Source: Octopus vulgaris (taxonomy: Eukaryota). From it: a stretch of 64,000 bases of DNA. Each line of letters opens with the position of its first letter. The stretch's first letter is position 1. Positions 5,644-10,688 of the stretch are shown here, one piece after another. The notes below the pieces were generated by a model. It saw only the letters and a program-made list of their open reading frames with translations, searched no databases and was not told the DNA's origin. The DNA is taken from NCBI GenBank assembly GCA_951406725.2, contig OX597824.1, positions 85,436,001 to 85,500,000 of the forward strand, written 5' to 3'. The position numbers and the translations under genes are program-made.

Positions 5644-5771
<128 letters not shown>

Positions 5772-6386
5772 TGTATGTATGTATGTATGTATGTATGTAT
5801 GTATGAAGTCAGTGTGTAGTATGCTGCTGGCATTCATATAAATGATTGTATTTTCCAATTACTGCCATCAGCACCAAAACACACCCCATAGAAAACAAAA
5901 AAACAAAACAAAAAAAACGAAAGGAAAAAAAAAGAAGAAAAGACAAGAAAAACCGACACACTGGCATTATCACCCCTTTTAGCAATAATTACCTTCCCAG
6001 CACTACAATGACTAACGACCAGGAAAATATCATAACAATGGCAACAGCAACAACAACAAAAACACTGAAAAGGGGGAAATAACAATTTAAATTGCTGTAT
6101 TAAAATAAAACATCAATATAAGCAATAGCAACGTGAATAATAAAAACAAGAGCCTAATCAACAACGATGACAGCGATGTCAATAGATACAACAACAAGAC
6201 AACAATAGATTTACAGTGTACATGCATGTGCATGCACAGACAGATAGAGAGATACATGCATACGTACATGCATACATACATACACACATACATATATACA
6301 TACATATGTATGTATGTATTATGTGTATATCTATGTATGTTTGTGTGATTGTGCCTGTGTGTTTAAAGATATCTTCACACTTTATA

Positions 6387-6417
<31 letters not shown>

Positions 6418-6523
6418 TACATATATAAATATACATACATATATATATATACATACATACATATATATATATATATATGCATATATATATATACATATGT
6501 ATATATATACACACGTATATATG

Positions 6524-6555
<32 letters not shown>

Positions 6556-7459
6556 CACACATATATATGTATTTATATATGTAAACATAACCATCCCTCC
6601 AAGGGAGAGAGAGCGAGAGCGAGATTGAGAGAGTGTGTGTACATAAATATGTGTGCTTGTGTTTATGTTAGAGTGTGTGCGCATTTGTATGTGTATTTGT
6701 GCATGTTTATTATATACAGTGACCTCTATATGCAATAGACAAAAGTCCGTCATTGGTTTTATTATTGCCAATAATTTAATGAGGTTCCAATTATCAAGAG
6801 GAACTTCGCATTTTAATTCACCACTTTCAAATTATCTTCTTAAGCGTTTAGATGATGCGGAGACAATATTAATTGAAGGCAAATAGTTACATCACCATAA
6901 TCGATAATATAGCACTGGAATCAGACGTTTTTCCAATACTGGATTCGATTATTTTTTCTTATCTTCTGGAAGACAATTGGATCAACGTGACTACGTTTCG
7001 ATAGGAATATGAGAAACCAGCTTTGTATACGTTGTTAACTCTTTCAGGAACCAGTGTTATCTATTGAGCCGGAGATTCAAGTCAGTTTCTATAACTATGA
7101 GGTCATCAGATACAAATCTTCCACCTGGATCGAAGGCCAATCCATTGAAAACAACTTACTAATTAACTTATGGCAGTTATGCTTTCAACGTGAAGGTGAG
7201 AAGTGTGGAATAAGGATCTTTCCTCCGAAGACCGAAGTACGAATATTTAGCTATACCGTATCTAGTTCTGAAAAACTCCTTTTGAGAATATATCTAACGA
7301 GTTTGACGACCGGAGGACTGCAAATCACCTCACATTTGGAACTCTGTAATAGCTGAAGTACACTCCGAACACACTAGTTTCGGTGTAGGTAGAACGACGC
7401 TTGCATTCAAGATGTCTTTGGTTAAGTATCGATGTATGAACAATATTTGTTCCGGCTAT

Positions 7460-7890
7460 AGCGGCGAGCTAGCAAAAACGTTAGCATGCCGGGTGAAATG
7501 CTTAGCTGTATTTCGTCTGTCTTTACGTTCAAATTCTGCCGAGGTCGACTTTGCCTTTCATCCTTTTGGGGTCGATAAATTAAGTACCAGTTGATGACTG
7601 GGTTCGATCTGATCAACTGCCCTCCCCCCACCAAATTTCGGGCCTTGTGCCTAGAGGAGAAAAGAATTATTCCGGGTCTTTGTGGTATTTATTCTGGGTC
7701 TTGCGGTACTTATTTCGGTTTTTGCGTTCTGAGTTCAAATCTCTCCAAAGTCAACTTTGCCCTTCCTCCTTTTGGAATCGATAAATAATACTTGTCTAGA
7801 ACTGTTCACTGATGGAATCGTTAAAGGTTCGGATAGAATTGTTTGCGGTATTTTATCCGGCCCTTTGTATTCGGAATTCAAATCCTGCCG
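7460..7890 (+). mobile_element. SINE A full copy followed by two degraded partial copies
   Basis: Head, B-box and core, then tail TTTCGGGCCTTGTGCCTAGAG; repeated core fragments follow. Confidence 0.85.
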
Positions 7891-7992
7891 TGACGTACCA
7901 GTCGCCGCGGAAGTGATTAGAACTCAAACACACTCGTAGTTAACCTTGAATAGCATTAGTAAAAATCTTTATCGCGATCATGATGAATGTTA

Positions 7993-8027
<35 letters not shown>

Positions 8028-8201
8028 ATTTTGAACGTTACATTCCTGCATTAAATCCAACAAATGTAATTTGGTCGGCATAATCTAGAATCCGTGAATT
8101 CTAAGAAATTTTGTACAAGAGTTTATTGAATTGGTTAACCGTGAAGAATGAAAGAATCTAACGTTTCGGACAAAGTCGTTCTTCAGTGCGAGAGAGAAAG
8201 A

Positions 8202-8258
<57 letters not shown>

Positions 8259-9036
8259 GGGAGGGAGAAAGAGAGCTAATATATATATAGATCGTATTGT
8301 CCATGTCGCAAAGTTGCGAATGAGAAAATGGGTGTAGCAAAGGAGTGATGTAGAATAGCTGATGTGATCAAAAACAGAGAGACAGAGACACAGACAGACA
8401 GACAAAAAGATAGATAGATAAATAGATAGATAGAGAGAGAGAGAGAAAAGAGAGAGAAGAGATAGCCAATAAACAGTGGTGCGAGTAGTGTGAAAGCTGC
8501 ATAACGAGTAGGAAGTAAAATGTGAGGAAGAAGCGGTCAGAGTTTACAACAAGAGTACTTTCGTGGCTTGTTTCAATTAAGGGTAGTCAAAAACAGTACA
8601 TGTTAGTGTTCCTAGTATATGATGTGTTTGAGGATGTAGTTAACTTTTATCCTATGCGTACAATATGTGCAAGAAATTTGACTACAGTCACCTATATTCT
8701 GCGATGACAGATTTTCTAGAGTGAAATACGAGCAGTAATGATATATTATCTTCAGTCTGTAGTTGCAAGCCGTAATATAATATAATACAGTTCCGGGAAA
8801 TGTGGGTCACTGTTCAGTGATTTCGAAATGGAAACGCAAAATTAAATGAAATATCAGTTTTGTTAGTGGCTAACTGAATGCCGGAGTAATACAATTTTAA
8901 GTTAAATTGTGGAAATGAGATTATTTCAATTAATTAATTGCGGATTATCAAGAATCACAGCTTGTTGAGTCAAGCTCAGTATTTTTATGTCACGAACATG
9001 GCTGTGTCTTGCAAACAACTTGCACATGCAAGTGCT

Positions 9037-9187
9037 ACCAGTTAAAAGCTCCGTATATCGGAAGCTAGCAAGTGTATGGGGGTCATCAGGAGAGAATGCG
9101 CGCCGTTTCGGGGCCTACCTCTCGACGGCATCAATGCGCACCGGACCCCCTCACTGATATGAGGCCCCGCTTGCTAGATCAGCTGGT
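9037..9187. other. GC-rich, multi-helix (pseudoknotted) structured segment of unknown family
   Basis: Complementary pairs 9065-72/9170-77, 9078-84/9144-50, 9090-94/9119-23, 9097-101/9136-40, 9102-06/9125-29 and 9109-16/9162-69. Confidence 0.55.
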
Positions 9188-9559
9188 TATGAAGAACTCA
9201 ATATACTTCTAGCCATCGCTCATCGTCTCTTTTTAACTAAATCCAGTGGCTAGCCTTCTCCACTGTAGATTGGATATCAGTCATGGTGGTATTGACTTTA
9301 CGATGAGTTAGGCCTAACGATAACAACAGTCGTTTACTATATAACAAACACTTACCTCTCAGCGATTAAGTTTATATGATTCTAAATATGGACATCAAGT
9401 AGTTGTCCATCAGTGACATCCCATTCTGTGTCAAGAAAAAAATTTCTCCGCGATTAAAATCCACAACGAAGGAGCCATTAAGGGAGCTTCTACCACTATC
9501 AGCCACAAATTCCTCAAATTACATCCTATCGTCTCAAAAAAGATACATTAGGTTATATA

Positions 9560-9779
9560 AATTTTTCTTTACTACCCACTAGGGGCTAAACACAGAGGGG
9601 ACAAACAAGGACAGACAAACGGATTAAGTCGATTATATCGACCCCAGTGCGTAACTGGTACTTATTTAACGACCCCGAAAGGATGAAAGGCAAAGTCAAC
9701 CTCGGAACGTAGCGGCAGACGAAATACGGCTAAGCATTTCGCCCGGCGTGCTAACGTTTCTGCCAGCTTGCCGTCTTAA
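9560..9779 (-). mobile_element. SINE A with the B-box deleted, inserted into an older repeat
   Basis: 15-bp TSD ACATTAGGTTATATA at 9545-9559 and 9780-9794. Confidence 0.9.
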
Positions 9780-10688
9780 ACATTAGGTTATATAGTCCTA
9801 GATACATTGTGTCTAAAGAAAAGATGGCGTGATCACAGTTGAAGTGCCTTTGATTGCAAGTTTGTTCAGTCAGGGCTGTTTATTAACTCTAGGGCAGTAG
9901 TTTAATAGCACTAGAGTTGATAATAATAAACTACAACAAACGCTCCCAACAAACTACAGTTTCTACCCAAGGATTGACAATATCCCCTATGAATGTATCA
10001 CTGTGAAAGCAAGGGTAAGGTCTATCATATTTCACCTTTAAAGCAGGATCTCTCTCTGAGACAGACATGGATTAAATTAGGTACAATTTACACTCTCACT
10101 GAATAATGCAGACAGACTTAAACCATTTAATAACACATAGAACACTTTAACATGGTGCGAAATAATGGAAGAGAGTCAGATTCAACATATGCTTAAAACA
10201 TGAAATATAAAGCTCTATCTTATGTTTACTATTTGGTAAGTATCGGAACACAACAAATATTGCTTTATTCATAAGAAATTTTCGTTACCGAAAAGTATAT
10301 CTAAAGCAAACCAATCTGAGGAAGCTCATTCAACTCCTGACTATAACAATGGAAGTGTTTGTAGTCAGTCTTGCGATGTAACGAAACACTCCTAAATTAT
10401 ACTGTGCCTGTGATGTTTGTTATTGATGACCGGCGCTCGACCACTTTATGCACGGCTGAAGTTTGTAAGCAAAAATGGTACTATCCGTAACCACAATTGC
10501 TTATTCGTGGTTCCGCTATTTTACTCACAGCTATGGTTATTCCACTGTTATTAGCTATAATTATCCCACTACGTTATATTAGATCACTGAGAGTGAAATT
10601 CTTAAATCAAGGGTAATATTGTTAACAACCTGCAATACGAACATACAACTGTAATCAGAAGGATACACAACCAAAAATACATTCTTAC

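Follow-up and report, generated by a model that had tools for sequence, protein, structure and literature searches.

A predicted split-core hammerhead-type fold in the 3' tails of HERO-like retrotransposons

Introduction

A short region of the Octopus vulgaris genome carries the core motifs of a hammerhead ribozyme in an unexpected order, and the question was what this structure is and what it might do. It lies at positions 9037 to 9187 of the window, a 64,000-nt stretch of contig OX597824.1 (assembly GCA_951406725.2, forward strand, 85,436,001 to 85,500,000). A sequence-only reading had presented it as an isolated GC-rich island of six helices, two of them crossing, which belonged to no known RNA family and was either a novel structured RNA or a rewired or dimer-acting ribozyme. 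The GC enrichment is present (61% over 9064-9177 vs 36% for the window). The assignment to no known family also held: an Rfam search returned no match at the gathering score, with three chance-level matches at E 6-9, and because there was no Rfam match, standard hammerhead searches miss the fold described below. Positions are those of the window unless stated otherwise.

Results

The element and its copy in the window

With 8950-9340 as the query, 2539 first-look candidates were returned from the source genome, and the supposed island proved to be the 3' tail of a repeat. The 40 candidates scored, of the 2539, were 98-99% identical over 9007-9333. All 30 copies fetched shared a common end at 9007, and their opposite ends lay at differing lengths, as expected of minus-strand retrotransposon copies with 5' truncation. 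A fixed 3' end with variable 5' truncation is shared with the R2-group (RLE) non-LTR retrotransposons. One copy of the element is contained in the window, with the following parts.

9007..9333, minus strand: copy of a HERO-like non-LTR retrotransposon (327 bp, 5'-truncated, 98.8% identical to the family; unit 3738 bp)
9198..9333, minus strand: final 45 codons and stop of the element's single ORF (premature stop in the window copy)
9007..9197, minus strand: 3' tail of 191 nt holding the predicted ribozyme, without poly(A)

The ORF stop codon is at 9200-9198, and the hammerhead-like fold is thus within the 191-nt 3' tail. The element unit measured 3737-3738 bp and held one ORF, which reached 1175 codons in the long loci. 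The encoded protein has an N-terminal zinc finger at residue 100, a reverse transcriptase domain (Pfam RVT_1 at 439-683, E 5.7e-19) and a CCHC zinc knuckle with CxC spacing at 954. In the alignment of its C-terminus the residues P, D, E and K are invariant, which we take to be typical of restriction-like endonucleases (PD-(D/E)xK-type); the one endonuclease regular expression tried had no match in the protein, and the endonuclease assignment rests on the alignment. A single ORF with zinc finger, reverse transcriptase, CCHC knuckle and C-terminal endonuclease is the organization of R2-group (RLE) elements.

The HERO label was first suggested by the C-terminal motif. One reverse transcriptase stretch was then found by eye to be identical to HERO-1_BF at 33 of 50 residues (supplement rows, PMC5678591), and the single ORF, zinc finger, reverse transcriptase, zinc knuckle and restriction-like endonuclease are shared with the HERO clade as represented there by HERO-1_BF and HERO-2_DR. 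The element is accordingly called HERO-like, a young, high-copy member of the R2 group by its sequence, with the label backed by this by-eye match and not by a tree.

No consistent target-site duplications were found in 10 short copies. No relative of the element was found in the viral contigs and prokaryote genomes searched. Querying the source genome with the family's own C-terminus returned the same family only; two older HERO-like families were recovered when a distant relative served as the query. On locus L034 the ORF frame is open from just past the unit junction (5685-5885), and the first ATG lies 60 codons on. At locus L036 (G000:C11:84627000-84636900) two copies with the same flanking sequence face each other and a third, internal piece is present, which resembles the outcome of an inverted duplication or of twin priming. 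A different high-copy short repeat, presumably SINE-like from its look, occurs at 9561-9782 and, reversed, at 7500-7790, with 72-86% identity to copies in many loci.

The predicted fold

The fold was assigned to the element strand. Its parts in the window copy are listed below, the outer scaffold first and the others in 5' to 3' order on that strand.

9037..9187, minus strand: outer three-way scaffold P1-P2-P3 (P3 9177-70/9072-65, P2 hairpin 9062-9050, P1 9187-81/9043-37)
9165..9168, minus strand: helix IV 5' strand, pairing with 9082-9079, which directly follows A9
9149..9164, minus strand: hairpin V, between helix IV and G10.1
9143..9148, minus strand: stem II 5' strand from G10.1, pairing with 9115-10 in the family register
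9137..9142, minus strand: helix IIIb 5' strand, pairing with 9100-9095
9118..9130, minus strand: block S (stem III strand, GUC triplet, stem I strand), predicted cut 9124/9123
9101..9115, minus strand: block G (stem II 3' strand, GAAA, stem III strand)
9079..9095, minus strand: stem I strand, CUGAUGA core (9089-9083), helix IV 3' strand
9018..9033, minus strand: terminal hairpin just before the fixed 3' end

Much of the earlier model was recovered. The positions of CUGAUGA (9089-83), GAAAC (9109-05) and GUC (9126-24) on the minus strand were confirmed, as were stem I (9123-18/9095-90) and stem III (9130-25/9106-01), both of which covary in relatives. Its closing helix (9187-81/9043-37), P3 and P6, the last being helix IIIb, were likewise recovered. 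Stem II had been described as not formed directly, its two flanks pairing instead with one bridging strand; it is formed, in a conserved register, by the G-run 9148-43 with 9115-10, and the bridging model had swapped two partners. P4 and P8, two helices of that model, were paired in 66.5% of cells and did not covary (194 of 500 shuffles scored as high; MAFFT, 12 relatives). The 7-bp P4 depends on near-private changes, an extra G near 9078 (2/30 copies) and the A at 9145 (1/30). All helices can be drawn within one copy, and the dimer-acting reading is therefore unneeded.

The change at 9145 forces a one-base slip of stem II in the window copy, to 9149-9144. Summed helix energies for this copy were -27.8 kcal/mol in the earlier register vs -18.8 kcal/mol in the conserved one, so that its private changes stabilize the former by about 9 kcal/mol; for the family the values were -23.2 and -24.5 kcal/mol. 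The window copy is probably inactive because its favoured register sequesters G8 and A9, and on these modelled energies it is probably a dead, misfolded insertion. The alternative inactive register is close in energy in the window's young family only, where it might possibly act as a switch. The length of the G-run at the border of hairpin V and stem II (L034 9279-9290, window about 9150-9143) differed in about 30 of 78 copies.

Nested folding was unexceptional (z -0.89 for the minus strand, -1.88 for the plus strand), because nested folding is unable to represent the crossing helices of a pseudoknot. The plus strand was considered as the functional strand and rejected, since the ORF and all 15 descriptor matches reported below lie on the element strand and none is antisense.

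Conservation among relatives

Twenty-four related loci were found by scanning metagenome contigs, with 30-62% protein identity except for one short match at 95%. Their tails share one order of strands, which on the element strand reads IV-5', hairpin V, II-5' (from G10.1), IIIb-5', III-NUH-cut-I, a 1-6 nt link, II-3'-GAAA-III, IIIb-3', I-CUGANGA and IV-3'. A9 and G10.1 are thus not joined directly (by 0-2 nt); helix IV and hairpin V intervene. Helix IIIb links the strand that follows II-5' to the strand that precedes stem I.

A descriptor of the whole motif, composed after the relatives had been inspected, was matched strictly by 12 of the 24 metagenome loci and by L039, the window and L161, the last from an older source-genome family. 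The matches were always on the sense strand, right after the ORF stop, and no further match was found in 414 kb on both strands. As a test against shuffling, which had been suggested for the original model and which nested folding did not pass, the whole-motif descriptor did stand out: it was matched by 0 of 30,000 dinucleotide shuffles, and by 2 of 30,000 in which the core letters were held fixed. The 12 metagenome matches were counted as 9 lineages, which with L039 and L161 gave 11 lineages with 45-88% identity over the motif.

The core letters CUGANGA, GAAA and UH were present in 11/11 lineages with a strict match, as the descriptor requires, and so were the G10.1-C11.1 and A15.1-U16.1 pairs, pairing that it also demands. 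The cleavage triplets were GUC, GUA and AUA. Helix IV showed 3-4 pair types per position (pairing there being demanded by the descriptor), helix IIIb had at least 5 bp in 13 of the 15 descriptor matches, and the P1-P2-P3 scaffold was predicted in 5 of the 11 lineages (L039, L071, L072, L073, L091). The base following A9 paired with C11.1 in none of the 11.

For scoring covariation, 12 closer relatives were aligned with MAFFT without fitting, decayed copies being included and the four most distant lineages (L075, L080, L083, L161) left out. Pairing in stems I, II, III and P2 held in 93.7% of cells, and 10 of the 20 pairs had changes on both sides; their score was reached by 0 of 500 shuffles and was far above every slid control. 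Helices IV, V and IIIb were excluded from this test on account of a one-column offset of MAFFT between subgroups.

Twelve of the 24 metagenome loci gave no strict match, and most of these are by eye decayed, deleted or cut-off copies. L074 has a HERO-like C-terminus and no hammerhead motif visible downstream. In the two older source-genome families 15 of 16 loci failed the strict scan, and the layout was visible by eye in most. These families (L155-L170) show the same ribozyme layout with differing stem sequences, stem II included; in one of them the triplet is GUU and hairpin V is branched. On the strength of sequence conservation, we regard as real a hammerhead-type fold, conserved in the tails of HERO-like retrotransposons, whose core is interrupted between A9 and G10.1.

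Copies that start at the predicted cut

Among 24 tail-selected copies with a visible 5' end, one starts exactly at the base after the predicted cut. A pattern search was made for copies whose two bases preceding the site differ from the element. It gave 12 matches at the cut, of which 9 were true 5' ends at the first base after it, the copy just mentioned not being among them. The search was repeated in like manner at three control sites, where 0/4, 0/0 and 2/3 matches were true ends; one of these sites was handicapped by subfamily variants. Under equal rates the difference between cut and controls had p 1.3e-4, or 1.4e-3 once the handicapped site was left out.

A 16-nt window around the cut was also scanned. 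The 21 matches included 12 truncations, after L247 had been dropped from 13 because its upstream sequence is element ORF (an internal deletion). Four of the 12 start on the post-cut base (p 0.005), three of these exact ends overlapping with copies found earlier; a fifth copy, in which one letter is changed, starts there too, and a further two begin 1-2 bases earlier. The copies whose first base follows the cut point to RNA molecules that have the cut as their 5' end. The conserved fold and these short genomic copies support the description of the structure as a rewired hammerhead, and it is very probable, from the genomic sequences, that the predicted fold self-cleaves.

The 5' ends of four of 30 tail-selected copies (L185, L186, L188, L205) lie within 8900-8922 of L034, which is possibly a second stop site inside the ORF.

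Tandem copies, 3' ends and deleted units

Genomic copies were found head to tail and longer than one unit. In the tandem arrangement the cut lies about 120 nt before the start of the next unit. Thirty loci were picked for coverage of the 5' region, a choice that favours long copies; 23 of them reach or pass the unit junction and 17 pass the upstream cut site. Seven start downstream of the junction, 6 in the interval from junction to cut and the other 17 farther upstream than the cut; no start is shared by the 30, and none of them ends at the cut. Among 10 long loci, none held a copy with two or more complete units. No indel was present at the cut site in any of 78 spanning copies.

The 3' flanks of 45 copies treated as non-tandem, among which L005 and L031 (tandem junctions with one changed letter) were kept, matched the continuing unit for 0-10 bases, with A at +2 in 45/45 and T at +3 in 41/45. 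The 3' ends also lack poly(A). Together these features suggest priming on RNA that continues past the 3' end.

Large internal deletions with differing breakpoints were found in 7 of the 30 loci (L102, L106, L110, L118, L120, L123, L124), with a closed size of 1.0-1.6 kb. On L034 the breakpoints fall at about 6368-6537 (six at 6368-6514) and at 8800-9109. Because the identity of these loci to the young family spans 83-99%, the deletions arose repeatedly over time.

In two sequencing runs of one study, X1 and X2, which were seen as assembled contigs and whose status as RNA is a guess, a self-closing deleted unit of about 1.25 kb was found with its joint from 6518 to 9002 (on L034:5569-9306). In X1 one contig of 1283 letters closes on itself at a flat depth of 76, vs 0-35 across the deleted part. 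The deleted unit had roughly ten times the coverage seen over most of the deleted part, and similar short sequences stand at both breakpoints. The joint was absent from runs X4 and X16, both of which show the 3'-heavy pattern of dispersed copies, and it was not found in the 30 source-genome loci examined (of 40 listed and 110 candidates). The unit of X1 and X2 is a candidate for a retrozyme-like mini-circle; a tandem DNA array in these individuals would close the same loop.

Discussion

Comparison with known systems

In one viroid hammerhead A9 and G10.1 are separated by one additional base. In the fold presented here the 5' strand of stem II is found upstream of block S, and A9 is bridged to G10.1 by helix IV and hairpin V. 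The strand order GUC-GAAA-CUGAUGA, singled out by the sequence-only reading as the reverse of every standard permutation, stands as an order and is already in print as S-G-C: cleavage has been shown for the type-SGC hammerheads (HRIMA-1 and variants; Eckert et al. 2023, PMC10085705). The S-G-C order, the crossing of stems I and III, all core letters and a short link from stem I into stem II (1-6 nt here, typically 3 in type-SGC) are shared between those RNAs and the present fold. In that paper, CUGAnGA with its two stem strands is assumed to be an uninterrupted block, with insertions there of at most 1-2 nt, an extra helix joins the distal sides of stems I and II, and type-SGC RNAs are said not to be found in genomes of known organisms.

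The differences lie in the block. The strand that forms stem II after CUGAnGA in type-SGC pairs with C11.1 in 0/11 lineages of the present fold. A true SGC stem II was tried as the fold here, and is ruled out by this first-pair count; the next pairs were formed in 2, 5 and 4 of 11. The fold appears from its sequences to resemble type-SGC in its working, yet not to be a member, the order being kept and the block broken. The S-G-C order was found in the literature searched; the split-core A9/G10.1 wiring was not. No hammerhead with an extra helix inserted at G10.1, and no ribozyme or circular intermediate for HERO, was described in that literature, whose coverage leaves out most subscription journals and Repbase reports, and a prior description is possible.

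Penelope elements have a different endonuclease from the element described here. For retrozymes and Penelope-like elements with hammerheads, a model of cutting, ligation and circle formation has been given (Cervera and de la Pena 2020, PMC7229834), and the hammerhead within a retroelement, the tandem genomic copies and a proposed circle route are points of likeness. Those elements carry type I or III hammerheads, and retrozymes are non-coding, whereas an autonomous LINE of the R2 group is described here; 'Hero' is not a term used in PMC7229834. R2 with its 5' HDV-like ribozyme (cited in PMC13725137, PMC13580325) is likewise a single-ORF R2-group element with a self-cleaving RNA, self-cleavage being predicted here. 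It differs from the present element in ribozyme class, in that the ribozyme here is in the 3' tail, and in that the element here is not site-specific and has tandem copies longer than one unit.

A possible route and its rivals

The route that we favour is that the RNA of the HERO-like element is cut, re-joined and copied from a circle, and on the genomic patterns the whole of it is somewhat probable. A transcript running through a longer-than-unit copy would be cut at two successive ribozymes. Hammerhead cleavage leaves 5'-OH and cyclic-phosphate ends, and the 3.7-kb unit with such ends would be joined by a host ligase or by the ribozyme. Priming by the element protein would take place inside the unit, at a constant position about 116-125 nt downstream from the cut, with the nicked target annealing to the continuing RNA. 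On unligated RNA copying would halt at the cut and give 116-bp copies; on a circle it could continue for any length, more than one round included. Internally deleted units of 1.0-1.6 kb would arise repeatedly and may ride along like retrozymes. A circle would account for all of the copy patterns; most of them would be explained too by end-to-end jumping on a linear RNA or by tandem transcripts left uncut.

The R2 reverse transcriptase is capable of end-to-end template jumping. The ribozyme might accordingly cut and the template stay linear, with the reverse transcriptase priming internally and jumping from the cut 5' end to the 3' end of that unit or a different one. Both the copies that start at the cut and those longer than a unit are accounted for in this way, and we leave it a small but real chance. 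Template jumps often add or lose bases, whereas the spanning copies are free of indels at the cut site, and the flat, self-closing contig of X1 is better suited to a circle. Clean junctions are equally expected if tandem arrays are read through and the uncut transcripts give rise to the long copies, in which case the cut would merely define the 5' end of the downstream unit or aid its translation, as with the 5' ribozyme of R2, or limit expression. The distance of about 120 nt between cut and next unit start fits this, and 5' ribozymes that aid retrotransposon translation are cited in PMC13725137. The explanation is nevertheless unlikely: copies of two or more full units are missing from the 10 long loci, overhangs of many lengths would shrink in each round unless regenerated, and the ribozyme would likewise remove the 3' end of every full transcript.

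It is also known in general that the 3' tails of R2-group elements bind their protein. The fold might thus be a hammerhead-derived protein-binding signal that no longer cuts, with the ends produced by stalling of the reverse transcriptase at the structure, and the A9 split does fall outside the published block rule (PMC10085705). We hold this to be highly improbable, for all catalytic letters and the NUH triplet are kept in 11/11 lineages with an intact fold, and the ends peak on the single base after H17 and not across the fold. To return to the circular route, its fullest form, in which autonomous HERO LINEs replicate via circular RNA, with a seventh, split-core hammerhead wiring, internal priming and deleted passenger circles of 1.0-1.6 kb that are sometimes abundant in tissue, is in our judgement about evenly balanced between right and wrong.

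Implications

If the split-core reading is true, hammerheads that are not circularly permuted extend from anonymous metatranscriptome RNAs to animal genomes, a wiring exists in addition to the six orders that had been considered possible, and in the best-studied ribozyme a helical junction can take the place of the A9-G10.1 link. If the proposed route is true as well, an R2-group LINE would use a circular template and internal priming, vs the standard priming at the 3' end of linear RNA, and this would bear on gene-insertion tools of the R2 type.
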